64,000 nucleotides of DNA, taken from positions 1-64,000 of IMG/VR virus record IMGVR_UViG_3300012122_000001. One strand, written 5' to 3'. This stretch comes from a virus. Lineage: Duplodnaviria > Caudoviricetes. Shown here piece by piece: positions 2,070 through 54,680 of the stretch. Below the pieces are notes generated by a model. It saw nothing but the letters and a program-made list of their open reading frames with translations. It was not told the DNA's origin and did no database searches. The translations under genes and the position numbers were made by a program. Positions within the stretch are counted from its first letter, which is position 1; the number at the start of each line of letters is the position of its first letter.

Positions 2070-2235
2070 GATTTAAAGGACAGTTAGGACAGTTGGACAG
2101 TTATTTGGTTAAACAGCCCACGCGCGCGCGCGCGCGCGCGTGAAGGTGATGAATCGGGAAATCTGTCCAACTGTCCTAAAAACTGCATTTCCTGCGAAAT
2201 TTTCAAGTTTTGGCATCACAACTGTCCTTTAAATC
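2070..2235. repeat. putative replication origin: nested inverted repeats, GGACAGTT iterons, (CG)10 core
   Basis: 16-bp perfect IR 2070-2085/2220-2235; GGACAGTT x3 (2078, 2087, 2095) with inverted copies at 2169 and 2220; 24-bp palindrome CA(CG)10TG at 2119-2142; directly downstream of primase-helicase. Confidence 0.65.
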
Positions 2236-4522
2236 AGAACTCGTTTTCCCTGGAAAGCTTGACGCTGGACTGCTGGAGGCCGATTCCGAAGCGCCATTTG
2301 TGCCCGCCGGACTTCTCGACCTTGTATCCCAGGTCGGTCAGACGGCGCCCGAACGCCGTCCCGGACATGGGTTCGTCGCTGCCGATCTCCCGTCGATGCC
2401 ACTCGACGTAGGCCTCGTAGAGGTCGGACGCCTTGCACCGGAGCTCGTTCATCAGGACGCAGCAGTCGGAGAAGAAGCGGCCGACGACGTCGGCGTCGGT
2501 CCGGTACTCCGCGGTCGCGGAGAGTACCTCGGTGGGGTCCTGGAGGCCTCCCTCGCGCCAGAGCTTCGCGCCTTCGACGGCCCAGGCCAGGATCCCGGAC
2601 GCCTCGCCCATCAGCTTGTCCATGAGCGTGTGGTCCATCTTGTCGGGGCCGATGACGACGGAGAACGGGATCAGGCGCACGCGGCGCCAGATTCCGAAGT
2701 CCATCCCCTTGATCTCCGGCTTGTTGTTCGTCGCCATGAAGATCTTCCAGGTCGGCTTGAGCGTCCAGAAGTCCTCGCGCATCCTGCGGACCTTGAGCTC
2801 GTCGCCGCCGGTTAACTGCTTGACGAAGTTCTCGGCGAGACGTCGGCCGTCCTCGACCTCGATCGTCGTCACGAACCGCTTTCCGGCGAGATCGGCGCGC
2901 TCAGTCGGGTGGGCCGACTGGGTCCTGGTCATCACAAGGTCCGGAGCGGCTTCTGCGGCATAGTCGGCGCCGATCACGTTCCGGAGCGCACCCAGGAACG
3001 TCGACTTCCCGTTCGCGCCTTTGCCGTAGGCGATCGGTAGGATGTGCTCCCGGACGATGCCGGTCAGAGAGTATCCGGCCAGCCGCTGGAGGTAGCCGAC
3101 CAAGCTTTCGTTGTCGGCCATGATCTCGTGGAGGAACGCCTGCCACCTGGGGGCTTTGGCGTTCGGATCGTACGAGGTGGGACTGAGCTTCGTGTGGAGA
3201 TTCTCGCGACGATGCTCCTCGAAGGATCCATCCTTCAGGTTGATCGTCCCGTTCATGCAGTTGAAGGTCCAGGGATCGCCGTCGAACTGCTCGGGCTCGA
3301 CTGCCCGCATGTGCTGGGCGACCCGGAGTGTGGCGCTGATCCGCTCGGACTTCTGGCGCTTCTCTCCGGCGTTGACGGCGATCTCGACGGACCGGCCGAA
3401 CGCAGAGCCGACGCGGTCGGGAACCCAGCGACGACCGTCCCAGACGATCCACTTCCTCCAAGGCTCGCAGAAGACGAAGTCTTTTCCGAAGTGGGAGACG
3501 AACTGGTTCGCCGCGTCGACGTCGGTGACGGTCGTCGGCTCGTCGCCTTCCTTTTTCTTCTTCAGCTTCTGTCCGAAGCCCTGGTCGAGCAGATCCTTGG
3601 CGGACTTCTTGAAGTCGCCGTTGTACTTCAGGAACGTGATCGCCGCCCACTTCGAGTAGGTCGAGTCCGGCTCGAAGGGCGTGGCGTTCGAGCTGAAGAC
3701 GTGCAGGTTGTCGCCGCAGAAGCCGACGGAGGCGGAGTGGCCCTCGTCGGTCTTCCCAGGCCTTTTCCAATAGACGATCGGGCCGTCGATCTTCGCCTTC
3801 CGCCATCCGTACGGCTCGAGAACCGCCTCCCAGGTGGCGCGGGCGTTGAAGTCGTCGCCTGGGGCGGTCTCGCCCGAGGCGCTCGGGTTTCCTTTTTCGC
3901 CTGGGCCGATGATCTTCTTCGGCGCCTTGTTGAAGGACTTCGCCGTCTCGATCAGCGTCGTCCGCTCGTCGTCGGTGATCGTCGGCACCTCCGTCAGGAG
4001 CGGACCATCGGCGTGGACGTAGGCCTTCTCGAGCGGATGGCATTTCGGATGGCTGGGGGGCGCGAGAACGTAGCCGCCTTCGCCGCGGGTCTCGATCAGG
4101 ACGTGCTTGTCCTCGGCGATCGCGAGCTTTTGATTGTGCTCGATCTTCGGAGCCCTGTAGTAGAAGTGAGCTCCGCCCTTCGGCGTCGCGATGCGCGGCA
4201 GGCGCGCGACGAGATCCGGCCGGACCCCGTTGACCGCCTGGATCCAGGGGTCGATCAGGGAGGGATCGTCGAAGTCGATCATCTCCAGGTTGCCGGAGAC
4301 CGCTCCGCCGATGATGGCGAGGCCGATCGGCTTGTCCGTGGAGAACCACTGGGCGAGCTCGTACGGGATAGCCTTGCGCTTCTCGTACTGCTTCCAGGTG
4401 CAGGCGGGAGCCTTCGAGCCGTCTGCCCGTACAGGAATTACGGACAGACCGGCGGCGACGTAGGCTTGCGCTGCTGCGAGTATGTATTCCGGAGACGCGG
4501 TCTCCGGTGCCTTGTCCGGCAT
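2234..4522 (-). CDS. bifunctional primase-polymerase (Prim-Pol) fused to D5/P4-type SF3 helicase
   Basis: N-terminal LSVIPV..DGSKAP, IDFD, TPKGGAHFYY, ETRGEGGYVLAPPS; D5_N-like WIVWDGRRW; Walker A GKGANGKST; KQLTGGD; MATNNKP; WRRVRLIPF. Confidence 0.92.
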   Translation of the reverse strand: MPDKAPETASPEYILAAAQAYVAAGLSVIPVRADGSKAPACTWKQYEKRKAIPYELAQWFSTDKPIGLAIIGGAVSGNLEMIDFDDPSLIDPWIQAVNGVRPDLVARLPRIATPKGGAHFYYRAPKIEHNQKLAIAEDKHVLIETRGEGGYVLAPPSHPKCHPLEKAYVHADGPLLTEVPTITDDERTTLIETAKSFNKAPKKIIGPGEKGNPSASGETAPGDDFNARATWEAVLEPYGWRKAKIDGPIVYWKRPGKTDEGHSASVGFCGDNLHVFSSNATPFEPDSTYSKWAAITFLKYNGDFKKSAKDLLDQGFGQKLKKKKEGDEPTTVTDVDAANQFVSHFGKDFVFCEPWRKWIVWDGRRWVPDRVGSAFGRSVEIAVNAGEKRQKSERISATLRVAQHMRAVEPEQFDGDPWTFNCMNGTINLKDGSFEEHRRENLHTKLSPTSYDPNAKAPRWQAFLHEIMADNESLVGYLQRLAGYSLTGIVREHILPIAYGKGANGKSTFLGALRNVIGADYAAEAAPDLVMTRTQSAHPTERADLAGKRFVTTIEVEDGRRLAENFVKQLTGGDELKVRRMREDFWTLKPTWKIFMATNNKPEIKGMDFGIWRRVRLIPFSVVIGPDKMDHTLMDKLMGEASGILAWAVEGAKLWREGGLQDPTEVLSATAEYRTDADVVGRFFSDCCVLMNELRCKASDLYEAYVEWHRREIGSDEPMSGTAFGRRLTDLGYKVEKSGGHKWRFGIGLQQSSVKLSRENEF

Positions 4523-4574
4523 TCAGACCCTCTCTCGACCTCTACCCATCCCCAATCCGTGCCCATCTAGTCGG

Positions 4575-4661
4575 TTCTCTCTATCGCTGTCGTCCGGGGG
4601 AGGAAACCCCGAACGACAGCAGAGAGAGAAGAGGGAGGGGCGGTCACACACCCCTGCCCTC
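4575..4661. other. two intergenic stem-loops between SSB-like and primase genes
   Basis: GCTGTCGT/ACGACAGC, CGGGG/CCCCG and TTCTCTCT/AGAGAGAA stems, then GAGGG-AGGGG/CCCCT-GCCCTC; no U-tract. Confidence 0.45.
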
Positions 4662-4672
4662 ATTGGAGGAAC

Positions 4673-5356
4673 TTAGAAGTCGACGTTCTTCCCGGCACCG
4701 GCCGCCGCGCCCTTCGCGGGGGCGCCCTTCGCGGGGGTGGTGCTCTTCTTCGGGTCGACCGGAGGAGTCGTGGCCTTCTTAGTCTCGTCCTTCGAGGACG
4801 CGCCCTTCTTCGGATCCGTCGGGGTGGCGGCGCCGTGCGGGTTCGGAGCGCCCTCTTCGACGGGCGGCGCCCAGGGATTGATGAAGGAGATCCGGCTGTT
4901 CACGCGGCCCTGGTACGTCTCGTCCTTGACCACGCCTTCGAACGTCAGACCGGCCCAGGAGGTCGAGACCAGGAGCTGGCTCAACTTCTCTTCCGGTCCG
5001 ATGTGGCGGCCGAGGATCGTCCCCAGGTCGCGCTTCATGTAGGCGAGGTTGTCCTTCGTGCCCCAGAAGACGCGCTCGAGAACGGCGCCCTTCGTGATGT
5101 GGGGCTCGCCGGTCTTGGGGTTCAGGACGGTCTCGGGCTCCAGGATCTCGCAGAAGAGCTTGAAGCCCTTCGAGCCGGAGTTCGCGACGAAGATCTCGTG
5201 GTCGGCGACGACGGTCTCGACGCCCTTCTTGATCTCCTTCGTCGTGCAGACGAACTTGTAGGTCGACTCCGGGACACGTCCGGGCGTCGGGATGTCGGCC
5301 GCGTCGGCCTTCTGGAAATCCTCGTCGAAGTCGGAAAACGGATTCGGGGTCGTCAT
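4673..5356 (-). CDS. single-stranded DNA-binding-like protein (DUF669-like)
   Basis: Position between Sak4-like ATPase and primase, OB-like core (GTYKF/EIL/ERVFW pattern), low-complexity tail ending in acidic-aromatic NVDF. Confidence 0.6.
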   Translation of the reverse strand: MTTPNPFSDFDEDFQKADAADIPTPGRVPESTYKFVCTTKEIKKGVETVVADHEIFVANSGSKGFKLFCEILEPETVLNPKTGEPHITKGAVLERVFWGTKDNLAYMKRDLGTILGRHIGPEEKLSQLLVSTSWAGLTFEGVVKDETYQGRVNSRISFINPWAPPVEEGAPNPHGAATPTDPKKGASSKDETKKATTPPVDPKKSTTPAKGAPAKGAAAGAGKNVDF

Positions 5357-5451
5357 GGTCTCTCCTTCTTTTCCAAAATAGTCACAGGAAACAAGCACCC
5401 TCTCGATCCAGAGCCATCGTCATCAACTTTTACCCCGGTCGGCGACGCGCT

Positions 5452-6765
5452 CTACTTCGAGTACGCGAGTACGTTTGCTCTCACCTCCTCTTCAGTCACT
5501 CCCACGGGCGTCGCGACGTAGACGGTCCCCTGACCGTCTCGATCCAGGAACGCGCGTCCCGCCAGCACCTTGCTGAACTCCCCATCGAGGAACTCCACCT
5601 GGGGCTTCCGGAGCTCCTTGGTCGATCCGACGTTGTATGTGCATCCGATCAGAGACTTCCCGTCCTTGCCGCTGAAGAACGGGTGGATGTGGCCGTTGGC
5701 AGAACAGTCCTGCTTCCGACACTTCTTCGCGTCGTCGGGCCACCGCATCGCGGTCGCCTTCTCCATCAGGGAGGCGAGCTCTTCCGGCGTGGCCGCGGGC
5801 TGGTCCGGCGTGATCGGGACGACTCCGAAGAACTTCCTGAGGTCTTCGCAGTTCTCCTCCGGCGTCCCAGGCTTGAGGTCGATCGGAGGATCGTCCGGAG
5901 CGCCTGGGGCCGTCGCCAGATCTGCGGCAGCCTGGGCGAGCTCGGCCGCCTTCTCGGCGACCGACTCCACGGTCGGCGGCGCCGCCGGATCCGGCACGTC
6001 CGGGACCACGAGCGGCTCGACCTCCGACGGCGGCGGCGCGTCCGGAGCGTCGAGCATCTGGGTGACGTGCGGCTCGAAGAGCTCCGCGAAGGCGCGCTTG
6101 CCCGTGATGTCGTGGACCGAGTACTTCGGCATCCAGTTGAAGCGCGTCTTGGTGCAGGTCAGAAGGAACTTCGACGACTTGTCCTTCTTGTTCTCCTCGG
6201 TGTGGCAGCGGAAGACGAGGTCGAACAGATACTCCGTCTGCTTGTCCCACTCCGGCAGGTACTCGCCGGTCTTCTTCCGGACTTCCTCGCCGCGTTTGTT
6301 GAGGATCTCCTCGTACTGCTCCTTCTCGCGGAAGGACAGGATGACGTGCATCGGGAGCTCGACGAGCTGATTCAGGAAAGCGGCCCAGCGTCGCTTCTGG
6401 ACGCCCCAGTCGCCGGGCGACATGATCTCGTTGCCGCGCTTGTTCCTGATGTAGTCGACGATGTCCTGGATCAGGTCCAGGTAGAAGATCGTCGTCGAGT
6501 CGATCGCCAGCGTCTCGTACACCCCCGGATGGGCGCGGAGCCAGGACAGCACTCCGTCGAGGTGGCGCCAGCGGTTCAGCGCCTTGGACTTGAAGTCGTA
6601 CTTCCCGCGGTACGGCAGCGTTCCCTTCTCCGTGTCGATGACGCAGACTTTCGGGAACGACAGCAGGACTCTCGTTTTCCCGACGCCGCCTCCGCCGGAC
6701 AGCGCGAGCTTGAGGTACTGCTTCTGGGCTTTGGGATCTTCGAACGGGTCAAATGATGACGCCAC
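5452..6765 (-). CDS. AAA_24 / Sak4-like ssDNA-annealing ATPase
   Basis: LKLALSGGGGVGKT Walker A, VIDTEKG, LAIDSTT, EYLFDLVFR; Pro-rich linker and C-terminal extension. Confidence 0.8.
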   Translation of the reverse strand: MASSFDPFEDPKAQKQYLKLALSGGGGVGKTRVLLSFPKVCVIDTEKGTLPYRGKYDFKSKALNRWRHLDGVLSWLRAHPGVYETLAIDSTTIFYLDLIQDIVDYIRNKRGNEIMSPGDWGVQKRRWAAFLNQLVELPMHVILSFREKEQYEEILNKRGEEVRKKTGEYLPEWDKQTEYLFDLVFRCHTEENKKDKSSKFLLTCTKTRFNWMPKYSVHDITGKRAFAELFEPHVTQMLDAPDAPPPSEVEPLVVPDVPDPAAPPTVESVAEKAAELAQAAADLATAPGAPDDPPIDLKPGTPEENCEDLRKFFGVVPITPDQPAATPEELASLMEKATAMRWPDDAKKCRKQDCSANGHIHPFFSGKDGKSLIGCTYNVGSTKELRKPQVEFLDGEFSKVLAGRAFLDRDGQGTVYVATPVGVTEEEVRANVLAYSK

Positions 6766-6793
6766 TGTTCCTCCTTCTTCTTCTCTACCGACC

Positions 6794-7015
6794 CTACTTC
6801 TCCTCTTGATTCTTCCTCGCTGATGTGTCGGATTCGGTCACACCTCCCTTCGAAATTCCGTCGGAAAATTTCGTCCCGCAGGGAATGCACGTCCCGCCGA
6901 TGACCTCGACAATGACCTTGTGCAGGCCGGGCGCCAGGGCCTCGGCGCCCTGGACGTCGATCGGCCTGGGACTCTTGCACCAGTGGCACAGGACCATGAT
7001 CAAGGTCGTCGTCAC
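6794..7015 (-). CDS. small zinc-ribbon protein
   Basis: CHWC...CIPC; GTG start overlapping upstream TGA. Confidence 0.55.
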   Translation of the reverse strand: MTTTLIMVLCHWCKSPRPIDVQGAEALAPGLHKVIVEVIGGTCIPCGTKFSDGISKGGVTESDTSARKNQEEK

Positions 7016-7311
7016 GCGACCACCTTGTCGAAACCGTGCTCGAGATCCATCTTCTTGGCCTGCTTCGTCGCGATCGCGATCGCCTCGGCGTAGGCAGCGG
7101 CGACCTCGGGAGTGCATTCTCCGATCGAGTACCAGGAGATCGTGGCGCGCCTCCAGTGGTAGTTGTGGTCTTCGAAGGAGAGATCCTGGTCGCAGTACGC
7201 CGTCACCTTCGGTTGAAAGCCGCGCTTCGTGTTCTCCTGGTCGAACACCGGGTCGATGCGGAGGACCCAGTAACGGTCCCTCCGCTCCTCCCGGATCTCG
7301 ATGCGGCTCAT
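7012..7311 (-). CDS. hypothetical protein
   Basis: MSRIEIREE... ATGA coupled to helicase stop. Confidence 0.6.
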   Translation of the reverse strand: MSRIEIREERRDRYWVLRIDPVFDQENTKRGFQPKVTAYCDQDLSFEDHNYHWRRATISWYSIGECTPEVAAAYAEAIAIATKQAKKMDLEHGFDKVVA

Positions 7312-9095
7312 CGCCGCACCTCTTTGGGGGCGCCGGGCTTCAGCGCCTCGTGGAACCAGTCGGGCAGCATCCGGGCCGACTTCCAGACGAACGACTCGAA
7401 CCCGGCGTCGAGGATGTAGGTCGTCGCCCAGTCGTCCTTCGAACGCACCGACCGGCCGTAGGACTGGACGATCTTGAGCGCGCAGAGCCAGGAGTACCAC
7501 GCGGAGTCGCGATCCATGCGCTGCTTGATGACCCGGTCCTGCATGTTGGGCCAGGGCATCTTGGCGATCACCTGGAAGCGGGCGAGGTCGCCCTTGAGGT
7601 CCAGGCCCTCGTGCATGGCGGGCGCGACGATGACCGAGTCCCTCCGACGCGCGTGCTCGGCCAGCATCGCTTCCTTCGAGTCGAAGTGATCCTGGAAGAG
7701 CAGCCGGTCCGCGTGCGGCGGATCGATCTGATTGTAGAGGATCTTCGCGAGAGAGAACGAGTGGCAGTGGATGATCCCGCGCTGGGCGCGGTGGCGCTCC
7801 AGGATCTCGCCGACCTTCTTGACGAACTTCGGCTCGGTGGGATCCTTGGGGTTCTGCTCCTTCGTGAAGTACTTGAAGCCCATGTTGCCCGCGTAGTCCT
7901 TGAAGATGAGCCGGTTCTCGACCGGGAAGTCGCAGGCGGTCTTGACCAGCTCGACCTCTTCGAGGGGCAGCCCCAGGTTGCGCGCCCACACCTCGACGTC
8001 GAGGATGGTCGCGGACATGAACACGATGCGGTCCGCGTGCTTGAAGAGGAGGTCGTGGGCGAAGTCTTTCGCGTAGAGGGGGCGGGCGACGATCTTCTTC
8101 CGCTCCTCGCCGTTGCGCTTGTCGTTGTACTTCACGACCTCCAGGATCCACTCCGTCTTCTCCAGGAAGGCCATGAAGTTCGCCAGCTTGCCCTCCAGCT
8201 CCTTGAGCGCGTCGATCTCGGCCGCGGACAGGTCGTCGTCTCCGTCGCCGCCCTCGTCGCCTTCCAGATCCTTCAGCTTCCGCTGGACGATCTGGATGAG
8301 GTCGGTCTCCTCCAGCCACTGGAGGAACTCCTGCTTCGAGCGGATGTCGCGATCGATCCGGACGTCGACCAGGGCCAGCGTCCACTCCGAGAGCTCCAGC
8401 GTGACGTAGTTCATGAGCTGGGTCTCGCAGTTGTGCGCCTCGTCGATGATCATGAGCGAGCGGTGGCCGAAGCGGCCGATGCGCTGCTGGAAGAGGAAGC
8501 TCGAGAAGTTGAAGAGCGAGATCGAGGCGTCGTGGACCTTCTGAAGCTGCGCCCAGTACGGGCAGTGGTGGCAGCCGGAGGGGAGCGCGAGGCCGACCGC
8601 GGCCTGGAGGACCGAGATGCCCTGGGCGTTCGCGATGGGCTTCGCCTGGAAGTCGTCGACGCACTCGGAGAGGATGCCCTTGGACTTCCGGCGGCAGACG
8701 CCGTCGCCCGCGTCCTGCCCTTCCTCGGCGTCCGCGTGCGTGCAGGCGTAGTTCGACCGGCCCTTCAGCGTCTCGATGTCCGGCGCCGGGTAGTCGGTCG
8801 CGTACTGGTCCTGGAGGATCTTCTGCGAGGTCAGCATGAAGGTCGACTCGCCGACCGTCCGGAGCGCGTTCGCGACCGTCTTGCAGGCGTCGGTCTTGCC
8901 CGCGCCCGTGGGGAGCTCGCCGACCACGAACCGCTTCCCGGCGGCGAACGCGGCGGCGGCTTTCTCCAGGAAGTGGGTCTGCTGGGGGCGGGGGGTTTTG
9001 CCTGGGGTGAAGTGCGTGAGAAGCTGATCGCCCGTGAAGGCCCAAGGCTTCACATTTTTCTGGGGCACCGGGGGGACGACGTTCCTCGTGACCAC
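7308..9095 (-). CDS. DinG/Rad3/XPD-like SF2 helicase with Fe-S cysteines
   Basis: ELPTGAGKT, KGRSNYAC..C..C..CPY, IIDEAH, MSAT, GLDLKGD, QSYGRSVRSKDDWATTYILD; GTG start after AAGGAGG. Confidence 0.9.
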   Translation of the reverse strand: MVTRNVVPPVPQKNVKPWAFTGDQLLTHFTPGKTPRPQQTHFLEKAAAAFAAGKRFVVGELPTGAGKTDACKTVANALRTVGESTFMLTSQKILQDQYATDYPAPDIETLKGRSNYACTHADAEEGQDAGDGVCRRKSKGILSECVDDFQAKPIANAQGISVLQAAVGLALPSGCHHCPYWAQLQKVHDASISLFNFSSFLFQQRIGRFGHRSLMIIDEAHNCETQLMNYVTLELSEWTLALVDVRIDRDIRSKQEFLQWLEETDLIQIVQRKLKDLEGDEGGDGDDDLSAAEIDALKELEGKLANFMAFLEKTEWILEVVKYNDKRNGEERKKIVARPLYAKDFAHDLLFKHADRIVFMSATILDVEVWARNLGLPLEEVELVKTACDFPVENRLIFKDYAGNMGFKYFTKEQNPKDPTEPKFVKKVGEILERHRAQRGIIHCHSFSLAKILYNQIDPPHADRLLFQDHFDSKEAMLAEHARRRDSVIVAPAMHEGLDLKGDLARFQVIAKMPWPNMQDRVIKQRMDRDSAWYSWLCALKIVQSYGRSVRSKDDWATTYILDAGFESFVWKSARMLPDWFHEALKPGAPKEVRR

Positions 9096-9304
9096 GGGTT
9101 CCTCCTTCTTCTTCCTACCCGACCGCGCGGTTCCTCCGCCTCGCGGCCGGGCTGTCCCTAGAGTCGCTGGATCTGGACCGCCGTACGTCCGAGTACAGAC
9201 TGCGGCGACGTGAGCTTGTGAGGACCCCGGCCGCAAACGGAGCGGCGGCGGTCCATATCCAGAGACTCGGGTTCACTGCGCGCCGGGGTGGTCCTCACGC
9301 CTGT

Positions 9305-12391: not shown

Positions 12392-13933
12392 ATGAGCTCG
12401 ACCGTCGAAGGGCTCGAGCGCGGAGTCATCGGCACGGACAAAACCATCCAGAGAATGCACCGTCTGGTCGCGCTGGGAAAGCTCGACCCGACGATCCAGA
12501 AGATCGCGACCTGGATCCGCCTGGGCGTGCCCAAGGACGTGCGCGCCTCGACGAAGCTCGCGGCCGACGCGATCTTCAACTGGGTTCAGAAGCACGGTCT
12601 CTTCCAGCGCGACCCGTTCCAGATCGAGAAGATCGAGCATCCTATCGAAGCGATGCGGCCGATCATCGAGGCGCGCAAGGCCGGGACGTACACCGGACCG
12701 GCGCTCTTCGTCGGCGACTGCGACACGATGGCGGGCGTGTACACGGCGAGTTTGCTCGGCGTGCTCGGCTTCCAGTATTCCTTCGAAACCGCCAAGGTCG
12801 ATCCGGATCGCCCCGACGAGTTCTCTCACGTCTGGGTCTCCGCGCGGATCGGGAACGAGTGGTACCCGCTCGACCCGTCGACGCGCGGGGCATATCCCGG
12901 CTGGCGTCCTCCGGTCAAGCCGGAGCAGTTCAAACGCTGGCCGGAGGGACCGATCGAAGACGTCGTGAAAGGGTCCGACATGAGCGCATTCAACAGCGGC
13001 ATGGGGGATAACGGAGAAGACGAAGGCGGCGACGAGCCCGTCATCGAGAACAACGATTCCCCCCTCACCGGAGTCGACGCCGAGTACGCCCAGGACTACA
13101 TCGGATACGGGATCCCCAGGGACTTCGGCAGCGGCCCAGGCGTGATCCCGCCCGGCAACTTCGAGAGCCTCCAGCTCCTTCCGCCGCACGACACGCAGAT
13201 CCCGGCGGCCGACCTGGAGCGGGACATGCATCTGCTCAAGGCGGCGCCGCGCCTGGACCCGTCCGAACGGATCCAGAGCCTCGCCGGTCAGCCGAACGAC
13301 CACGGCAACCCCTACTATCGCGGGGGTGGTCGCCAGCCCTACATCAAGGTCGAGCGCAAGATGTACCCGCCCGGCTCGCGCTGGAACGAGCCGTACGGCA
13401 AGGACACCATCCGCTACCAGAAAACCGACAAGTACATTTCCGTCAAGAGTCCCGAAACACCCGAAAGACGAGTGGAGGTCAAGATGGACCAGCCGATGCT
13501 GATCCGCAGGAGAAACGTCATGACGCCCCCTCAGCGGATCCCGTTCGGCGCAATGGACGGCATGGGCGACATCGATCCCAATACCGGGATCATGACCTTC
13601 GGCTCGACGCCCGCGCCCACGGCGACGCAGACGGCAGCGGCGACCGCCGGAACGTCCGTCTGGGATTCGATCCTGGGCGCATTCTCGTCCGTCGCGAAGG
13701 CCGCCGGAACGATCGTTCCGTCGGTGCTCCAGTCGAAGACCGCGCAGGCCGTCGCGAGCGCGACGAACCGTCTCGCGGGCTCGAACGTGCTGACGGCCGG
13801 GCAGCTCACCAACCCGACGCCCTGGTACAAGAACCCCGTCACGATCGGCCTGGGGCTCGCCACGCTCGGCGGCCTGGGCTACGTCGTCATCAAGATGCGC
13901 CCCGGCATGGGCGGCCGGAGGCGTCGCCGGTAG
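12392..13933 (+). CDS. transglutaminase-like (papain-fold) cysteine protease with C-terminal membrane anchor; candidate virion maturation protease
   Basis: Cys-His-Asp triad in GDCDTMA, FSHVW, WYPLDPS; C-terminal TM (VTIGLGLATLGGLGYVVI) plus RRRRR. Confidence 0.8.
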   Translation: MSSTVEGLERGVIGTDKTIQRMHRLVALGKLDPTIQKIATWIRLGVPKDVRASTKLAADAIFNWVQKHGLFQRDPFQIEKIEHPIEAMRPIIEARKAGTYTGPALFVGDCDTMAGVYTASLLGVLGFQYSFETAKVDPDRPDEFSHVWVSARIGNEWYPLDPSTRGAYPGWRPPVKPEQFKRWPEGPIEDVVKGSDMSAFNSGMGDNGEDEGGDEPVIENNDSPLTGVDAEYAQDYIGYGIPRDFGSGPGVIPPGNFESLQLLPPHDTQIPAADLERDMHLLKAAPRLDPSERIQSLAGQPNDHGNPYYRGGGRQPYIKVERKMYPPGSRWNEPYGKDTIRYQKTDKYISVKSPETPERRVEVKMDQPMLIRRRNVMTPPQRIPFGAMDGMGDIDPNTGIMTFGSTPAPTATQTAAATAGTSVWDSILGAFSSVAKAAGTIVPSVLQSKTAQAVASATNRLAGSNVLTAGQLTNPTPWYKNPVTIGLGLATLGGLGYVVIKMRPGMGGRRRRR

Positions 13934-13938
13934 GTTCG

Positions 13939-14220
13939 ATGCGCTACATCCGCTACGTCAAGAGACCCGGCATCGGAGATTCCGTCACCGACGGACTCAC
14001 GACCGGCTTCACCGCTTCGGTCGCCGAGGCCCTGGAGCCGAAGATCCGGACCATCCTGAAGGAGGACATCCTTCCCATGGTGATGGTGGGTCTCGTCGCG
14101 GGCGCCGTAGCGGCGTCGGTCATCGGATCCTGGTTCGCTTCGCGCCCCTCGCGGTCCGGAGTCCGGTCGAACCCGGTCTCCAGGATCCACATCCCTCTGC
14201 GTCGCCGGAGGACCGCATGA
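13939..14220 (+). CDS. small virion membrane protein
   Basis: One TM, GIGD and RSNP motifs, basic tail; ATGA coupling. Confidence 0.7.
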   Translation: MRYIRYVKRPGIGDSVTDGLTTGFTASVAEALEPKIRTILKEDILPMVMVGLVAGAVAASVIGSWFASRPSRSGVRSNPVSRIHIPLRRRRTA

Positions 14221-17200
14221 GCTACCAGGATCTCAAGTCCAGGATGGTCGCGCACCTCAAGAAGTGGGCGCGTGGAATGGTTGATTCCGGCGAGGGCATG
14301 AACTTCAGCATCGAGTCGGCGATTTACTGGTTCGCGAACGACTACCACAACGGCGGCGGAAGCGAGCTCTACCAGATCCTCTCGACCTCGAAATTTCGTC
14401 CCGGTCCGTCTCATCGGTCGGTCGACGATGAAGGCGACGAGATCGACAAAATGATGTACGAGGAGCTGGAGCGGTACTTCATCCCAAAAGGAAGAGCGAG
14501 GAACAACGGTCACACGGGCGTTCGAAAGAACCCTCCGTCCTTCATCCTGATCGACAAAGAGACCGGACTCGTCGTGTACACGAAGCGGGCGACCGGCGTC
14601 GGCAGCGCAGCGATCTCGGCTTGCGTGAAGCGTGGTCACGAGCTCGCGGACCAGCACAACCGCGTCTACACCGTCTTCCTGGACATCCGCGGCCTCTCTC
14701 GTGGCATGAAGGTCCATGTCCCGGCGATCTATGCGCTCGGGATCACCGAAGAGATCCATCCGGGCGGTCAGTCCGTCCGTCCGAATTCTCGCGGCGCCGT
14801 ACGGAAGAACATCTTCACCTTCAACAATCCGAAGCTGAAGTTCAGCGATCTCTCGGTCGGCGAGACGTTCGTGTTCGCCTCCCAGGACGATCCCAAGTTC
14901 CTGACCAGCGGAATGGCGCGCGGTCCGTGGATCAAGCGCAGCGCCAGGACGTACGAACACGTCGACGACGTCGGCAAGCAGATCTCGGAGCGGAGGTACG
15001 GCGGCGGCCATATCGCCGTCGGAAGCGCCTCCGTCGGAGTGAAGCGCATGAGCCTCGGACGGGAACTGCCGAAGCTCTGCCCTCACTGCGACGCCTCGTA
15101 TATCGGCACGCCCCAGATGCACAAGTTCGAGTGCGCTCCCCAGGGCGGAGCGAACCTGTACCAGGAGAACCCGCGCCGCAGATCCGCTCGTCGGAACCCC
15201 ACGATGGGATCCTACGAGGTCTTCGTCGGGAACATCGGGCAGGTCTACGACGGGAACGATCGGGCGAAGGCGCAGCACTCCTTCGACTACTACGTCGCCA
15301 TGTCGAAGCGTACCAGCGGTCGCGCGAGCGGCGAGGATGTCGCCCTCCTCTGTGAAGGCGAACTCAGCCAGGAGTACATCGGAAGCAAGGGACGCGAGCG
15401 CGGAGATCATCGGCGCGGCGTCCGCCGGAACATCTTCACCTTCAACAATCCTCCGTCCGGCCCGGCAGATCCGGCCGCGGCGCGCGAGCTCGAGGTCTAC
15501 ATCGAGAACGACGCCGACCTCTACCGGCAGCAGTTCGTCCCGATCGTGAAGAATCTGATGCTGAAGCGCCGGAAGGGCGTCTACAACCGCGAGCTGGCGG
15601 TCAAGCTCTTCATGTACCTGATGGACGCGGGCGCGAAGAAGTACGTCGCCGAGTACGTCCGCTCGTCGTCGCCCGGCGCGCCGATGCCGAAGATCGACGG
15701 CACCTTCAACAAGAACACGCGCCTGATGGCCGCGCGGTCCTTCCTGGAGTCCTTCGAAGGCGAGGCGGAGCTCGGGAACTACGACCGGATGATCGGTCCG
15801 GTCTCGAACCCTCGGGGGGCAAACGTGCGGAAGAATATCTTCACCTTCAACAACCCGAAGCAGCGTCCTCTGAACGAGATGGAGAACGCTGCCAGTCTGG
15901 TCGGCCTGACCGTCACGACCTGGGCGCCGGGCGACGGCGTGACGCGCTACCGCTTCTTCAAGGCAGGCGGAAGTCGGTACGCCGACTATCACCAGGGCGG
16001 CGCTCTCTACACGGCGCTCGGCCGGAAGGAAGCGATCGCGTTCATCAAGTCGTACGGCGTCGGCCGTAGCCGGATGAATCCGCTGAACCAGAAAGAAATC
16101 GAGCAGATGCGCGATCGCGAGAGGTTCTACGTCGGTCGCTCTCAGAAGTACGGTTCCGAGGGGAAGGAAGCGGATGCCGCTCACTTCCGAGGCGCCGCGC
16201 AGGAGAGTCGGAACATTCGCGAGCGTCACCATGCCAAGGGCACGGATTGGTGGCCGAATCCCCCTGTCTGCTCGAACCCGCTCGTCCGCGGCGACAAGCT
16301 TCCTCACAACCTCCGGATGGAAGTGCGGAATCGGTTCATCTACCGCTGGACGTCCGACAACGATCGTCGCGCCGAAGTCTACGGCCTCTGCCCGCACTGC
16401 AAGACGCGGGGCGGGAAGCCCTCCGAGACCAACATCGCTTGCCGTCAGGTCCACCCGACGATCCCGCTTCAGACGGACGAGCAGTGGCTCAAGACGCACG
16501 CCTTCCACGTCACGAAGGCGGGTCGTCTCAGCGAGCGGCATAACCATGCGGAGCCGGGCTACATGGCCGACGACGAGACCAGGAAGAATCCGATGTCGCG
16601 CCGCGAAGCCGCAGGAGAGATCCGGGAGATCCGCGGCGCGAGAAGCAAGATGCGCTACTTCCATCGGCTCGGCCGTCCGGAAGCTGCCGAGTTCCAGGAC
16701 GGATACGCTCACGGAGTCGCAGGAGCGGTTTACCGCCGCGGTCCGAAGTCCGCGCGTCGTGTCGTCGATCGCGCGGTCCGCTCGAATCCGCTCCTCCAGA
16801 CCGTGATGCTGGCGAATCCTGGATCGGTGAAGACTTTCAGCGAGATGCAGGACGTGGGCAAGGCGAAGTACGTTGTGAACTATCACGACGGAGTGAAGGT
16901 GCATCGCGACGGTAGCCCGTTTTTCGACATCGCCATTTTCAGCAATCGGGCTAAGAAAGATCAGTTCGTCAGGAAGTTGGAGAGCCTTGGATTTACTCGG
17001 GGCGCCCTTCGGAACCCGCCGATCTCCACGCAGTGGGATCGGATGACGCGCCGCCAGCGCGAGGCGCTCCTGGAGATCGTCGGCTACGATCGTGACTTCT
17101 CCGGCGGCATGACGCTGTCCACCTGGGGCGCGCTCTCTCCCGCCGCGAAGCGGAAGCTCGAGGCTCAGTGGCTCGACACGACGTCAAGCGGCGGAACGAC

Positions 17201-17858
17201 GCGCCGTCGGCGCCGCTCGCCGGTCGCGGTGAATCCGCTGACCAGGAAAGAAGCCGCGTCGACGGTCAGAAGCGCAAAGTTCGACCTTCGATACGGGTCG
17301 GCGTTCGCGCCCGGACACACGCGATCCGGCTCGGCCGGTCGCGCGTTCGGGAAGGCAACGGTCGTTCGTGACTTCGGCCCCAGGTCAGCCGGTCGGGCCG
17401 CGAGCAAGATCATGAAGCGTTCCGTCGACCTGACGCACGCCGTTCGTACGAACCCCGGCATCAAGTACCCGAAACCCGGCACGAAGATGACCGTCGCCCA
17501 GGCGATGGACCTCGCGCGCCGGATCGGCAACAAGGATCTGATCAAGCAGTGCGAGGAAGCCGCGAAGCTCCAGAAGGTCGCGAACCGCGGCGCGAAGGTC
17601 GTCATCTGGAAGGAGCTGCCGATCGGCTCGCCGAACAAGATCGACATGGTGACGGCCTTCGCCCATTACGGCGACTCTCCGGAGACGATGTACCGGCCGC
17701 CGAAGGGCTCGAAGAAGGGCCCGCATATGTACCGCCACAAATGGGGCGAGGGAACCGGCAAGAAGAAGTCCGTGCCGATCCTGGCGGCGCCCGGCGGCAA
17801 AGCACTCATCACGCTGATGGGCAGCGACCAGAAGACCGGCGATTGGATGAGAGGCTAG
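14217..17858 (+). CDS. modular polyvalent protein, about 13 small domains separated by Asn-Pro linkers
   Basis: 1213 aa; 16 NP dipeptides counted, mostly R-x-N-P or hydrophobic-(A/N)-N-P, spaced about 60-110 aa. Confidence 0.85.
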   Translation: MSYQDLKSRMVAHLKKWARGMVDSGEGMNFSIESAIYWFANDYHNGGGSELYQILSTSKFRPGPSHRSVDDEGDEIDKMMYEELERYFIPKGRARNNGHTGVRKNPPSFILIDKETGLVVYTKRATGVGSAAISACVKRGHELADQHNRVYTVFLDIRGLSRGMKVHVPAIYALGITEEIHPGGQSVRPNSRGAVRKNIFTFNNPKLKFSDLSVGETFVFASQDDPKFLTSGMARGPWIKRSARTYEHVDDVGKQISERRYGGGHIAVGSASVGVKRMSLGRELPKLCPHCDASYIGTPQMHKFECAPQGGANLYQENPRRRSARRNPTMGSYEVFVGNIGQVYDGNDRAKAQHSFDYYVAMSKRTSGRASGEDVALLCEGELSQEYIGSKGRERGDHRRGVRRNIFTFNNPPSGPADPAAARELEVYIENDADLYRQQFVPIVKNLMLKRRKGVYNRELAVKLFMYLMDAGAKKYVAEYVRSSSPGAPMPKIDGTFNKNTRLMAARSFLESFEGEAELGNYDRMIGPVSNPRGANVRKNIFTFNNPKQRPLNEMENAASLVGLTVTTWAPGDGVTRYRFFKAGGSRYADYHQGGALYTALGRKEAIAFIKSYGVGRSRMNPLNQKEIEQMRDRERFYVGRSQKYGSEGKEADAAHFRGAAQESRNIRERHHAKGTDWWPNPPVCSNPLVRGDKLPHNLRMEVRNRFIYRWTSDNDRRAEVYGLCPHCKTRGGKPSETNIACRQVHPTIPLQTDEQWLKTHAFHVTKAGRLSERHNHAEPGYMADDETRKNPMSRREAAGEIREIRGARSKMRYFHRLGRPEAAEFQDGYAHGVAGAVYRRGPKSARRVVDRAVRSNPLLQTVMLANPGSVKTFSEMQDVGKAKYVVNYHDGVKVHRDGSPFFDIAIFSNRAKKDQFVRKLESLGFTRGALRNPPISTQWDRMTRRQREALLEIVGYDRDFSGGMTLSTWGALSPAAKRKLEAQWLDTTSSGGTTRRRRRSPVAVNPLTRKEAASTVRSAKFDLRYGSAFAPGHTRSGSAGRAFGKATVVRDFGPRSAGRAASKIMKRSVDLTHAVRTNPGIKYPKPGTKMTVAQAMDLARRIGNKDLIKQCEEAAKLQKVANRGAKVVIWKELPIGSPNKIDMVTAFAHYGDSPETMYRPPKGSKKGPHMYRHKWGEGTGKKKSVPILAAPGGKALITLMGSDQKTGDWMRG
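14802..14831 (+). repeat. in-frame linker repeat RKNIFTFNNP, copy 1
   Basis: cgg aag aac atc ttc acc ttc aac aat ccg. Confidence 0.9.
15423..15452 (+). repeat. in-frame linker repeat RRNIFTFNNP, copy 2
   Basis: cgc cgg aac atc ttc acc ttc aac aat cct. Confidence 0.9.
15828..15857 (+). repeat. in-frame linker repeat RKNIFTFNNP, copy 3
   Basis: cgg aag aat atc ttc acc ttc aac aac ccg. Confidence 0.9.
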
Positions 17859-17868
17859 GAGAATTCAC

Positions 17869-18987
17869 ATGATCGGAGCACTTGTATTTGCGAACCCCGG
17901 ACGGCCTGTAGCCGCTCGGAGGAGACGTTCGCGTTCCCGTACCGCCCGCACGACGGGCAGGAGAGTCAAGATGGCACGCACCCGTTCGCGCCGTCGCACC
18001 GGGCGGCGCATCCGGCGGAATGCCAAGGGGCATTTCGTCACCCGGCGCCGGTCGACCCGGCGTCGGCGTCGGAATCCCAGCGGCTTCATCAAGGTCGGCC
18101 GCCGCTGGAAGAAGATCACGAAGTACGCCCGTCGGCGCCGTCGGGGCAGCCGGAAGGGCCAGATCCGGGCCTTCAAGTTCCCGAAGCGGTATCGGCGGAG
18201 CCGCCGGGTTCGTCGGAACCCCGTGGTCGTCGCCAACCCGCGTCGGAGCCGTAGCCGTCGGGCGCGGCGCAACCCGTATCGGCGTCATCGCCGGTACGTC
18301 CGTCGGAATCCCAGCGTCGCGTATCGGCTGACGTCGGATCCGGTCGCGGCGATCAAGTCGGCGATCATGTCCGCGTTCTCGATGGACACCGTCGAGACGC
18401 TGTTCCACATGGGCCTGGGCTTCGGCTCGTCCATCGTGGTCAGCCGGACGCTGATCAAGCAGTGGCTGCCGGTCCTCGGCGAGACCGCTCTCGGCCGGGT
18501 CGGCGGCACGTTCGGGACCGGCGTGGTCCTGACGGCGCTGTCGAGCTTCCTCAAGAACTCGAGCCTCACGGCCCGGTTCCTGACCGGCTCGCTGTTCGCC
18601 ACCTTCTGGCAGGGCCTGTCCGAAGTCGTGTCGGCCTACCAGCCTCAGCTCAAGGAGTTCATCCCGACGCTGTCGGGCGCTCCGGAGACCGAGGAGTTCC
18701 GTCGCGCGATCGAGCGGGAAGTTCTCCGCGAGCTCAAGGGCGGCGTGAACGAATACCTGCCCGCGGCGGGCGCCGAGGGGTACTCGACGTACCTCCGCCC
18801 GGCCGGGATCGAGTACCTCCGTCCCGCCGGGACGGAAGCGTACCTCACCGAAGTGGGCGCGGAGCGCGCCCAGGGAGGCATGGGCGCCTTCCTGACCGAC
18901 CGCGAGGTCAGTCGCGTCGAAGCCCGGCCCAGCGGGGTCGGCGAGGACGAGTTCGGCAGGGGCGACACCCTGCCGGAGCGGTTCTAG
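17869..18987 (+). CDS. Arg-rich (protamine-like) core/membrane protein
   Basis: About 56 Arg and no Asp/Glu in first ~150 aa, six NP motifs, central hydrophobic helices, C-terminal YLxPAG repeats; strong AGGAGA RBS. Confidence 0.8.
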   Translation: MIGALVFANPGRPVAARRRRSRSRTARTTGRRVKMARTRSRRRTGRRIRRNAKGHFVTRRRSTRRRRRNPSGFIKVGRRWKKITKYARRRRRGSRKGQIRAFKFPKRYRRSRRVRRNPVVVANPRRSRSRRARRNPYRRHRRYVRRNPSVAYRLTSDPVAAIKSAIMSAFSMDTVETLFHMGLGFGSSIVVSRTLIKQWLPVLGETALGRVGGTFGTGVVLTALSSFLKNSSLTARFLTGSLFATFWQGLSEVVSAYQPQLKEFIPTLSGAPETEEFRRAIEREVLRELKGGVNEYLPAAGAEGYSTYLRPAGIEYLRPAGTEAYLTEVGAERAQGGMGAFLTDREVSRVEARPSGVGEDEFGRGDTLPERF

Positions 18988-19963: not shown

Positions 19964-20917
19964 ATGAGCTGGTCCCAGGTTCCGACATTCCTCCGCATCT
20001 CGGACAAGGATCCCGATCCCAAGAAGCGCGGGATCATCTACATGAACCCGGCGAAGGACTGGGTTCAGCCGTTCGAGCTGACGGTTTCGAAGCCGAACCA
20101 AGTCATCCGTCTCGCCGCGGGCGAGCAGCGCGGGCCCTTCCCGCTGACGGCGCAGTACGACGGCCCGATCGAGGTCTTCTACGTCAAGGCCAACGTCTAC
20201 GAGGACGACGACGGGGAGCCCGGCGCCCTGGTGAACTCGTACGACATCGACGTGCTCCTGGAGCATCCGGGCAAGCGGATCCAGTTCATGAACCGCTTCG
20301 TCCCGCTCGACGCGATGTCCGGAAACGCCGGGCTGCCGTACGTCCTGCCGGAGACGATCTTCATCCCGCCGGTCCAGTCGCTCAACCTGACGCTCGTCAA
20401 CAACGATCTCGCCAACGCGCGGCACGTCGAGTTCGTCCTGGGCGGCATCAAGTTCTACCCGAACATGGCGCCGTCCGAGATCCGCGGCGAGACCTGGAAG
20501 TACGTCGACCGCCGCGAGCGGACCTACGCCTACCTCATGACCACCGACGAGGAAGCCGTCGTCGCCGCCTCGGCCACCACGCCCTTCTTCATGACGATCC
20601 CCGACAACGCGGATCTCGAGGTCTTCAAGCTGACGGCCAAGGCGACCGCCGCCTTCCGCTGCCGCGTGCGCGACGGTCAGAACGACCGCGCCCTCACCGG
20701 AGACCTCGTCCACTCGGCGCTGCTCTTCGGCGGCCACCAGCCGCTCTCGGGCAACGCTGCGGTCACCGGATCCGGCGGTCTCTTCCCGGCACGCTGGGCG
20801 ACCTCGTGGCTCATCCGGCGGTCGACGAAGGTCCAGCTCGATCTCCAGGACATCAGCGCCGCGGAGAACGAGATCAAGGTCATCTTCGGAGGCAGAAAGA
20901 TCAGCTATGTCAGCTAA
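19964..20917 (+). CDS. probable double jelly-roll-like capsid protein (internal tandem duplication)
   Basis: Two ~150-aa beta-rich halves align by eye: IEVFYVKA/LEVFKLTA, GLPYVLP..IFIP/GLFPARW..WLIR, LNLTLVN/VQLDLQD, VEFVLGGIK/IKVIFGGRK. Confidence 0.6.
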   Translation: MSWSQVPTFLRISDKDPDPKKRGIIYMNPAKDWVQPFELTVSKPNQVIRLAAGEQRGPFPLTAQYDGPIEVFYVKANVYEDDDGEPGALVNSYDIDVLLEHPGKRIQFMNRFVPLDAMSGNAGLPYVLPETIFIPPVQSLNLTLVNNDLANARHVEFVLGGIKFYPNMAPSEIRGETWKYVDRRERTYAYLMTTDEEAVVAASATTPFFMTIPDNADLEVFKLTAKATAAFRCRVRDGQNDRALTGDLVHSALLFGGHQPLSGNAAVTGSGGLFPARWATSWLIRRSTKVQLDLQDISAAENEIKVIFGGRKISYVS

Positions 20918-21626: not shown

Positions 21627-22106
21627 ATGCCCGCACCACTGAACCCTAACCTCTGGCCGTCGGTCCTCCACGATGAGGACGGCAACCCGATCTCGGCAAC
21701 GAATCCCCTGCCCGTAACGGGGCCGGGTGGCGGTCCGGTCGAGAACGTCCTCACCCAGGTCCGGCAGGTCCAGAACGAAGAGACCACCACGCCCCTGGGG
21801 GCCGGTGCGACCTTCAACGGCGCCGATCGGGACTGCGAGAATTACGAGAGCTTCGGAATCTCCGTGTTCCTCGATCCCGACGCCGGGCAGGCACTGAACT
21901 GTTCGGTCCTGGTCGAGAACAGCATCGACGGCGTGACCTGGAGGACGGTCGACACGGTCTCCGTCGCGGGCGCCGCTGATGCGTCATCGACCCTGAACCG
22001 CGTCTACTCGGTCACGCGCCGGTTCTACCGGGTCAGCGTGATCAACAACGACGGATCGAACGGACTCGACGCGACCGAAGTCATTTCGATGATGAAGCCC
22101 ATCTAA
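21627..22106 (+). CDS. vertex/spike-associated beta-sandwich protein A
   Basis: NPLPV anchor segment, TTTPLGAGATFNG..SIDGVTW..YRV pattern typical of virion beta-sandwich proteins. Confidence 0.55.
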   Translation: MPAPLNPNLWPSVLHDEDGNPISATNPLPVTGPGGGPVENVLTQVRQVQNEETTTPLGAGATFNGADRDCENYESFGISVFLDPDAGQALNCSVLVENSIDGVTWRTVDTVSVAGAADASSTLNRVYSVTRRFYRVSVINNDGSNGLDATEVISMMKPI

Positions 22107-23904: not shown

Positions 23905-24348
23905 ATGCCCGCACCACTTAATCCAAATCTCTGGCCGTCGGTCCTGCATGACGAGGAAGGGAACGTCATCAACGGGACAAATCCGCTGCCGGTCACGGGA
24001 CCAAGCGGCCCAGGCAGCGCCATTTCCGTCAAGGGATCTCCTGGGGCCACGATCACGACTGACCCGGATGTCGCGGTGCCCGGAACGGGCGGCACGGTTC
24101 CCCTGGGCCCGATTCCCGCGGGAACCCGCCGGATGTACGTCCAGAATGCCGGACCGGCCGGAACCTGGGTTCGCGTCCGTGAGGTCGGCGGGACGGCAGG
24201 ATCCGGCAGGCTTCTCCCGCGCCTGGGCGAAGCCATCTACGGCGGCGCCGACGGCGCCCTGGCCCAACTTGAGGTCCAAGACGTCTCCCTGGCGGTCGGG
24301 TTATCCGCGGTCGCGACAGTCATCGCGGTTCAGTACGAGGGAGACTAA
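23905..24348 (+). CDS. vertex/spike-associated protein A-prime (shares N-terminus with 21627)
   Basis: MPAPLNPNLWPSVLHD.EGN....TNPLPVTGP; different small beta-sandwich C-terminus. Confidence 0.6.
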   Translation: MPAPLNPNLWPSVLHDEEGNVINGTNPLPVTGPSGPGSAISVKGSPGATITTDPDVAVPGTGGTVPLGPIPAGTRRMYVQNAGPAGTWVRVREVGGTAGSGRLLPRLGEAIYGGADGALAQLEVQDVSLAVGLSAVATVIAVQYEGD

Positions 24349-49559: not shown

Positions 49560-49565
49560 GATCAG

Positions 49566-49595
49566 AATATAGCATACCAACAGTACCGTTGTCAA
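49566..49595 (-). promoter_or_regulatory. sigma70-like promoter, probably leaderless
   Basis: TTGACA-N18-TATATT; ATG at 49559 is 7 nt downstream. Confidence 0.6.
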
Positions 49596-49603
49596 CCACA
49601 TTT

Positions 49604-54654: not shown

Positions 54655-54680
54655 CCCCGTCTCCTTCTTCTTCCTTCTTC

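Follow-up and report, generated by a model that had tools for sequence, protein, structure and literature searches.

A modular protein with Asn-Pro seams and a constant basic anchor, encoded among the virion genes of a predicted tailless double-jelly-roll virus

The modular gene and its neighbours

We analysed a window of 64,000 nucleotides (positions 1 to 64,000 of the IMG/VR record IMGVR_UViG_3300012122_000001) from a viral genome of 72.7 kb. The genes on which the analysis bears are the following:

12392..13933, plus strand: transglutaminase-like Cys-His-Asp enzyme (aa 1-200), with a C-terminal transmembrane helix and a poly-Arg tail
13939..14220, plus strand: 93-aa transmembrane protein, with [GA][VI]R-x-NP near its C-terminal end and PG[MLI]GD near its N-terminal end
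14217..17858, plus strand: modular protein with Asn-Pro (NP) seams, 1213 aa, 135.7 kDa, pI 10.0
17869..18987, plus strand: 372-aa core protein, with a protamine-like, Arg-rich N-terminal part of 150 aa followed by transmembrane helices
19964..20917, plus strand: candidate double-jelly-roll major capsid protein, 317 aa
48954..49601, minus strand: SprT-like zincin (PF10263, 31.1 bits; cut-off 25.6)

The modular gene is an uninterrupted reading frame of the length first read from the sequence, and its codon-position GC matches that of the genome (GC3 0.83). Its start overlaps the stop of the gene for the 93-aa protein, and its position amid conserved virion genes is fixed in every relative. Within the 72.7-kb genome, NP enrichment is confined to the modular gene and the two genes that flank it. 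The [GA][VI]R-x-NP of the 93-aa protein is conserved, and the 372-aa protein carries six NP (four RRNP and two ANP) at conserved positions in its Arg-rich N-terminal part.

The predicted structure of the capsid protein candidate (pLDDT 88, pTM 0.84) aligns with the STIV MCP (Z 11.2, 226 aligned residues, rmsd 4.2), PRD1 P3 (Z 9.9, 240 aligned residues, rmsd 4.5-4.6) and PM2 P2 (Z 9.1). On the basis of this modelled fold, the source genome is that of an uncultivated, tailless double-jelly-roll bacterial virus of 72.7 kb and not of a tailed or otherwise typical phage. The sole cultured relative of the transglutaminase-like enzyme is gp34 of SSIP-1, annotated as a structural protein; phmmer and blastp comparisons of the window with SSIP-1 gave no homologies beyond gp34. 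The SSIP-1 proteins, including the 2319-aa structural protein gp43, show no NP enrichment.

Modules joined at Asn-Pro seams

The modular protein holds 16 NP against 2.84 expected from composition. NP is its most enriched dipeptide (5.6x), and none of 20,000 shuffles of the protein reached 16. All of the NP contexts named in the sequence-only reading were found, and their frequency lies far above background. The enrichment extends to the family: the 150 best of 4107 homologs contain 910 NP against 160 expected. Each of the 16 NP falls inside a segment of pLDDT<50 in the AlphaFold2 model or no more than 2 residues from one (p ~8e-7); with the unresolved block 187-411 set aside, the remaining 12 sites give p ~3e-7. 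The seams share one architecture, in which a disordered basic linker leads to NP and a fold starts 2-11 residues further on; in M7, M9, M11 and M12 the first helix follows NP by only 2-4 residues. The seams delimit these modules:

14217..15446, plus strand: variable N-terminal modules M1 (aa 1-104), M2 (106-203), M3 (206-317, CPHC) and M4 (329-410)
15453..15806, plus strand: M5 (aa 413-530), four-helix, the most widespread module
15858..17012, plus strand: M6 (548-620), M7 (623-680), M8 (689-790, CPHC), M9 (793-856) and M10 (869-932)
17019..17450, plus strand: M11 (935-1005) and M12 (1008-1078), conserved, helical and strongly basic, before the anchor
17457..17855, plus strand: M13 (aa 1081-1213), constant C-terminal alpha/beta domain, net charge +14

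Homolog coverage changes stepwise at NP 105, 204, 411, 531, 621, 1006 and 1079, and the hit borders of distant relatives lie at a median of 4-5 aa from an NP, falling within 12 aa in 87% of cases versus 28% for random positions. Together with the model, these steps and borders back the division into about 13 units that had been proposed from the sequence, and no domain spans an NP site. The model leaves M3 and M4 unresolved, so for these two the borders come from homology only. Both CPHC motifs are likewise present, at aa 288-291 and 725-728. The units had also been described as unrelated, which needs correction for one pair: M9 (793-856) and M12 (1008-1078) are paralogs with 30% identity (E 2e-5).

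Module content and order vary among relatives. The module strings of 26 relatives comprise 25 module families and 27 singletons, and the C-terminal three modules stay constant while the strings differ. A cluster that merged M11 with M13 was an artefact of single-linkage clustering. The C-terminal modules have net charges of +6 to +14. M13 is C-terminal in all relatives and forms a separate 133-aa gene in contig L097; alone (133 aa) or with one extra module (197 aa), it keeps its place ahead of the core-protein gene. The last ~150 aa had thus been rightly singled out as the constant part. Stand-alone homologs exist for M4 (in Burkholderia phages BcepSauron and BcepSaruman and Agrobacterium phage JP1), M5 (proteins of 104-160 aa that lack NP, found in numerous phage contigs), M8 (103-107 aa) and M13, and single-module homologs outside the virus group have no NP. 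Because modules are shuffled, several stand alone without NP and M13 is always C-terminal, the protein is an expandable cassette upon a constant anchor. None of the four refuting conditions named in the sequence-only reading applied. Two large phage contigs (L025 and L033) encode M5 in fusion with a prohead protease of the Peptidase_S77 family (T4 gp21-type) and a scaffold-like protein, which implies a head-internal location in another lineage.

No family in Pfam (E<=1) or PHROGs (E<=0.1) matched the modular protein, and none in Pfam (E<=0.001) matched seven long relatives. PDB sequence profiles of M5 and M13 hit designed helical proteins alone, which we treated as noise; Foldseek of the whole model against the PDB returned nothing, and matches in BFVD were unnamed viral proteins of ~100 aa at 30-40% identity, with a Klosneuvirus protein among them. 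The anti-defence or polyvalent domains anticipated from the sequence therefore found no match in Pfam, PHROGs or the PDB.

In the alignment of relatives, NP columns are at least 90% conserved within variable, indel-rich linkers, and the seams are the exact insertion points of whole modules. Seam codons differ (AAC or AAT for Asn; CCG, CCT or CCC for Pro), so selection acts on the peptide and not on the DNA, and a DNA-level recombination seam is ruled out. Only N and P are invariant in the seam consensus; the flanks are weakly constrained, with basic residues favoured upstream of NP and not downstream. A longer seam peptide, [VI]R[KR]N[IV][FY]x[FW]NNP, occurs 38 times in 19 relatives, a hydrophobic, strand-like IFTFN precedes NP at three seams, and NP has been lost at one orthologous seam (NNSP in contig L005). 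An M-x(2-12)-NP start is common in multi-module proteins of NP-using contigs.

Only one of the seams (RKNPM, AGG AAG AAT CCG ATG) resembles a Shine-Dalgarno sequence followed by a start codon, so translated ribosome-binding sites are not a general account. Nor is NP a general N-terminal leader of other virion proteins, as the MSAKNP of a 236-aa protein is not conserved and its relatives have K, H or R at the site. MPAPLNPNLWP and YMNPAKDW, in other virion proteins, are conserved, are not basic and probably belong to folds. No published description of NP seams was found in the searchable literature.

Packaging and the fate of the seams

We favour, at a probability of roughly 0.5, the reading that this is an expandable multi-module protein with the basic anchor M13, packaged as cargo, in which NP serves as a processing signal. 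Its carriers would be uncultivated tailless double-jelly-roll viruses of 65-75 kb, distant kin of SSIP-1. The ancestral unit would be the constant, very basic M13, which probably brings the modular protein, together with the protamine-like core protein, into the particle. From 0 to ~12 small accessory modules, drawn from a pool common to many unrelated phages, stand N-terminal to it. Packaged with the DNA, the protein would deliver pre-made accessory proteins. The NP tag would let the modules separate, either through self-cleavage at Asn-Pro or through cutting by one of the virus's own candidate proteases, the transglutaminase-like enzyme or the SprT-like zincin. The parts of this reading differ in strength: packaging is probable, while the chance that NP is ever cut falls a little short of even. 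Points against the reading are that proteases which cleave ahead of proline are rare, that NP is not enriched in SSIP-1, and that the modules match no known effector or anti-defence family.

The transglutaminase-like protein is a candidate protease, or else a virion lytic enzyme. Its C110, H146 and D161 are invariant across eight transglutaminase-like sequences, including those of the divergent contigs L010 and L094, and it resembles Transglut_core clusters (feature score 0.94, TM 0.81), with no Pfam match at E<=0.01. In four divergent contig groups (the G000 group, L010, L094 and L095), the gene accompanies NP seams, no more than 10 kb upstream; it is present in 8 of 10 NP-rich versus 1 of 24 NP-poor clusters (Fisher p 2e-5, with phylogeny ignored), a co-occurrence that may be due to common descent within one virus lineage. 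Another motif, G[LMIV]G[DE], has 10 copies in nine virion-operon proteins versus 1.8 expected; two are in the transglutaminase-like protein, one of them directly after the catalytic domain, and the modular protein has none. This motif fits processing by the enzyme at least as well as NP does. It may be the enzyme's real site, leaving NP without a cutter, and the transglutaminase-like protein may alternatively serve the virion as a hydrolase of the cell wall. The SprT-like zincin, encoded outside the virion operon, is a second protease candidate.

Alternatively, the seams may stay uncut, a serious if somewhat doubtful reading in which NP would form an Asx-Pro turn or hinge with a docking tag and the 136-kDa protein would act intact as a basic core or scaffold-like component. 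The tag could then isolate adjacent folds, bind DNA, membrane or a capsid receptor, or ease unfolding at delivery. The closeness of NP to the first helix in M7, M9, M11 and M12 agrees with this, as do the Arg-rich linkers and adjoining protamine-like protein, the resemblance of the longer seam peptide to a short docking strand, the NP missing in L005 and the G[LMIV]G[DE] motif as an at least equal fit to the adjacent enzyme. A plain linker, however, has no need of two invariant residues, and no hinge is needed where NP follows very short N-terminal leaders, as it does in both stand-alone and multi-module proteins. The basic residues stand before NP, opposite to SPKK-type DNA-binding turns.

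It is improbable that the seams cut themselves by attack of the Asn side chain on its own peptide bond (the succinimide route), with no protease, slowly or when triggered within the particle or after delivery. FlhB/SctU (NPTH), the anti-sigma factor RsgI, and reovirus mu1 (Asn42-Pro43) and aquareovirus VP5 are each cut at Asn-Pro, at a single site in a folded beta-turn (PMC4620466, PMC10328401, PMC9148132). The invariant dipeptide is the same here, one precedent is a virion protein, and invariance is limited to N and P; the strand-like IFTFN ahead of three seams fits as well, and the contigs L011 and L012, both short, have NP seams without a visible protease. These precedents, however, require a folded turn with adjacent catalytic residues, whereas the 16 sites here lie in indel-rich linkers predicted at low confidence and thus apparently flexible, and none of the 16 is NPTH. 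The analogy to FlhB drawn in the sequence-only reading accordingly fails.

We also think it improbable that the modular protein is not packaged at all, being a cytoplasmic late or early accessory protein of the classical polyvalent kind that merely sits within the virion operon. It has neither a transmembrane segment nor a recognisable capsid-targeting sequence, and stand-alone relatives of its modules sit within stretches of small accessory genes in jumbo phages. Against this, the gene keeps its place between conserved virion genes in all relatives, M13 accompanies the core-protein gene even as a lone gene, the motif is common to two membrane or core proteins, and M5 is joined to a prohead protease in other contigs. 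We reject 2A/StopGo skipping (D(V/I)ExNPGP), a eukaryotic mechanism: NPG occurs at 2 of the 16 seams and NPGP at none.

Relation to known systems and implications

Polyvalent proteins of phages and plasmids join 2-15 distinct domains in one polypeptide, for which co-delivery with DNA and processing into units have been proposed (Iyer et al. 2017, PMC5512222). The modular protein is similar in that homology steps and the model place ~13 modules in one polypeptide, and its domains also occur alone and in combinations shuffled between relatives. Unlike polyvalent proteins, it shows no detectable signature domain (an MPTase inside the protein, ArdC-N, SNF2, helicase, methylases or LPDs), the SprT-like zincin being a separate gene; it has a strict Asn-Pro seam and a C-terminal anchor, and its source appears to be a tailless double-jelly-roll virus. 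In the account by Iyer et al. (2017, PMC5512222) the word 'linker' is absent, and a search by terms brought up no passage on a conserved seam motif.

The locus also resembles the maturation systems of eukaryotic viruses. Double-jelly-roll viruses of eukaryotes pair a maturation protease with core proteins or polyproteins (adenovirus AVP with pVII and pX; ASFV pS273R with pp220 and pp62), and the sites of these proteases have Gly at P1. The likenesses here are a double-jelly-roll capsid, a cysteine enzyme of papain-like fold whose gene lies among those of the virion, and one short repeated motif that a protamine-like core protein and a large multi-unit protein share at unit borders. In contrast, the enzyme is transglutaminase-like and not adenain (clan CE), the seams are NP and not Gly-Gly, with G[LMIV]G[DE] closer to the Gly sites, and cutting is here only hypothetical. 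In tailed phages, T4 gp21 and phiKZ gp175 are serine proteases that cut after Glu and release head-internal packaged proteins at a short repeated motif. M5 is fused to such a Peptidase_S77 protease in L025 and L033, whereas an S77 gene is absent from the genome studied here.

In its most specific form, the proposal is that prokaryotic double-jelly-roll viruses mature their virions by cleavage at a code, basic-x-Asn-Pro. The protease, transglutaminase-like and anchored in the membrane, would cut the co-packaged cargo polyprotein, the protamine-like core protein and the small membrane protein at NP. Such a system would parallel, in a bacterial virus, adenovirus AVP/pVII and ASFV pS273R/pp220, and its open-ended cassette would serve to deliver accessory proteins. 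We consider this form unlikely.

Should the seams prove to be cut, we would have here, to our knowledge, the first system of polyprotein processing and cargo delivery in bacterial double-jelly-roll viruses, with a two-residue code readily spotted in sequence data and a mechanistic tie to the maturation of adenovirus and ASFV. The module pool counts 4107 homologs among phage proteins of unassigned function, and those tested yielded no Pfam family. With cut seams, the pool would amount to a list of proteins that reach the cell ready-made with the virus, a promising source of counter-defence or takeover functions. With uncut seams, too, NP would be of practical use, as it shows where these dark proteins can be divided into domains.

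Asn-Pro seams as domain borders

The complete virus record is 72,725 bp long with direct terminal repeats, and the window covers its first 64 kb. Genome-wide, an Asn-Pro (NP) motif is common to only three genes, the modular gene and its two flanking genes:

13939-14220, plus strand: 93-aa transmembrane (TM) protein, with GVRSNP close to its C-terminus
14217-17858, plus strand: modular protein of 1213 aa (135.7 kDa, pI 10.0), about 13 small modules (M1 to M13)
17869-18987, plus strand: 372-aa Arg-rich protein, with four RRNP and two ANP

The modular protein contains 16 NP against 2.84 expected, a count reached in 0 of 20,000 shuffles, and NP is its most enriched dipeptide. The broader seam pattern approximates [GA]-V-R-[KRST]-N-P, with the longer form VR[KR]NIFTFNNP at three seams; the extended seam peptide occurs 38 times across 19 relatives. 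Five relatives of both flanking proteins keep the NP positions, and the neighbouring residues drift. The codons used differ from seam to seam, which argues for selection on the peptide and not on the DNA. The seam Asn is the rare codon AAT in 7/16 cases, against 6/37 in the rest of the gene and 22/172 in ten other genes.

Homolog alignments and structure prediction both indicate that domain borders do coincide with the NP seams. When 150 homologs are aligned, their coverage rises or falls stepwise at NP sites, and the borders of distant-match alignments lie a median of 4-5 residues from NP, with 87% within 12 residues compared with 28% for random positions. Residues 1-1200 were modelled with AlphaFold2 using a 78-row alignment, giving a pTM of 0.32, a value to be expected of a beads-on-a-string protein. 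Confident modules span residues 106-186, 411-528, 551-616, 622-672, 686-775, 796-829, 932-986, 1006-1075 and 1081-1200; M3 and M4 (aa 187-410) fall outside them. The linkers between these modules have pLDDT<50, all 16 NP lie inside such linkers or at most 2 residues away (p about 8e-7), and the next fold typically starts 2-11 residues after the NP. Across the C-terminal 300 aa of 23 relatives, NP columns are at least 90% conserved amid variable, gapped linkers, and additional modules enter exactly at the seams.

Variable module strings and the C-terminal domain

Using HMMER against 1.84 billion representatives, we found 4107 relatives of the modular protein, the best 150 of which hold 910 NP against 160 expected. 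Cutting 26 close relatives at NP yielded 25 recurrent module families and 27 singletons. The module strings vary and change order among these relatives, with the final three modules constant and M13 (final 133 aa) C-terminal in every case. On contig L097, M13 is a separate 133-aa gene directly upstream of a homolog of the Arg-rich protein, and on L099 a 197-aa form consists of M13 and one more module, joined by NP; family lengths therefore span 133 to 1213 aa. Proteins of NP-using contigs frequently start with M-x(2-12)-NP, and NP is absent from single-module homologs in other viruses.

Comparisons with Pfam, PHROGs, PDB and BFVD gave no known function for any module. The sole functional association is the fusion of M5 (aa 413-530), the most widespread module, to a Peptidase_S77 prohead protease on two phage contigs (116 and 131 kb):

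L025, 8897-11185: 762-aa M5-Peptidase_S77 fusion
L033, 8750-11401: 883-aa M5-Peptidase_S77 fusion

Both carry an N-terminal Peptidase_S77 (T4 gp21-like) followed by an acidic scaffold-like region. Fusion to a prohead protease would place M5 inside the procapsid in another lineage.

Virus type and other genes

Terminase, portal and HK97-type capsid families were looked for in this virus and none was detected. Judged by its predicted fold, the 317-aa protein at 19964-20917 is a double-jelly-roll capsid protein: the model has two jelly rolls (pLDDT 88, pTM 0.84) and can be aligned from end to end with STIV MCP (Z 11.2; rmsd 4.2 over 226 residues), PRD1 P3 (Z 9.9) and PM2 P2 (Z 9.1), as well as with the FLiP and PBCV-1 capsid proteins. 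Its 107 homologs sit on contigs up to 64-75 kb, so large double-jelly-roll viruses of this kind form a populated group, as yet uncultivated. At 72.7 kb, and with terminal repeats, the genome is unusually large among the known prokaryotic double-jelly-roll viruses. One 14.4-kb fragment from this group, syntenic with the present genome (L096, JBOGJN010000436.1), is binned in a Thermoanaerobaculia MAG, a weak host hint. Thermoplasmata archaeon is the label on another homolog of the capsid protein, which disagrees with that bin.

2234-9236 and 52834-54762, both minus strand: replication/packaging candidates (PrimPol-D5 helicase fusion, AAA_24 protein, DEAD_2/Helicase_C_2 helicase, HerA/FtsK-like DUF87 ATPase)
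27562-29625: 687-aa protein with Calx-beta and BNR/YCF48-like beta-propeller repeats
21627-22106 and 23905-24348: paralogous pair

The 687-aa protein is likely a receptor-binding spike. The paralogs have a common N-terminus, MPAPLNPNLWPSVLHDE, and diverge afterwards; this head is retained in all relatives and resembles a shared anchor that could carry different spike or fibre tips.

Candidate processing and the NP signal

12392-13933: transglutaminase-like protein, with an N-terminal transglutaminase-like core, then a TM helix and a poly-Arg tail
48954-49601, minus strand: SprT-like zincin metallopeptidase (PF10263, 31.1 bits), not part of the virion operon

In the transglutaminase-like protein, Cys110, His146 and Asp161 are invariant across eight sequences. 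A comparison with 50,697 phage records gave a single match, SSIP-1 gp34, which carries the annotation structural protein and aligns at the triad; NP enrichment is absent from SSIP-1. In the G000 group, and in the divergent contigs L010, L094 and L095, NP-rich modular proteins have a transglutaminase-like gene at most 10 kb upstream. It occurs in 8/10 NP-rich clusters against 1/24 NP-poor M5-bearing ones (Fisher p 2e-5, phylogeny ignored), and the two NP-rich clusters that lack it are both short contigs.

Another motif, G[LMIV]G[DE], has 10 copies in 9 plus-strand virion-operon proteins (window 9599-37266) against 1.8 expected, a count matched by 0/2000 shuffles. It often sits close to protein N- or C-ends and is kept in relatives (the 93-aa protein has it as PG[MLI]GD and a 236-aa protein as GGMGD). 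The transglutaminase-like protein holds two of the copies, one right behind the catalytic domain, and the modular protein has none. The motif could serve as a second processing code, and it may be the true site of the transglutaminase-like enzyme. An SprT-like zincin is the type of peptidase put forward by Iyer et al. (PMC5512222) to process polyvalent proteins.

For the NP signal itself, either of two readings would fit: it may mark a cutting site, for an enzyme or for self-cleavage at Asn-Pro, which has precedents in RsgI, FlhB and reovirus mu1 (PMC10328401, PMC4620466, PMC9148132), or it may mean 'hinge or dock here'. The best-supported reading is that the modular protein would be a packaged, expandable cargo protein, with M13 as its anchor and the NP tags as a selected peptide signal.
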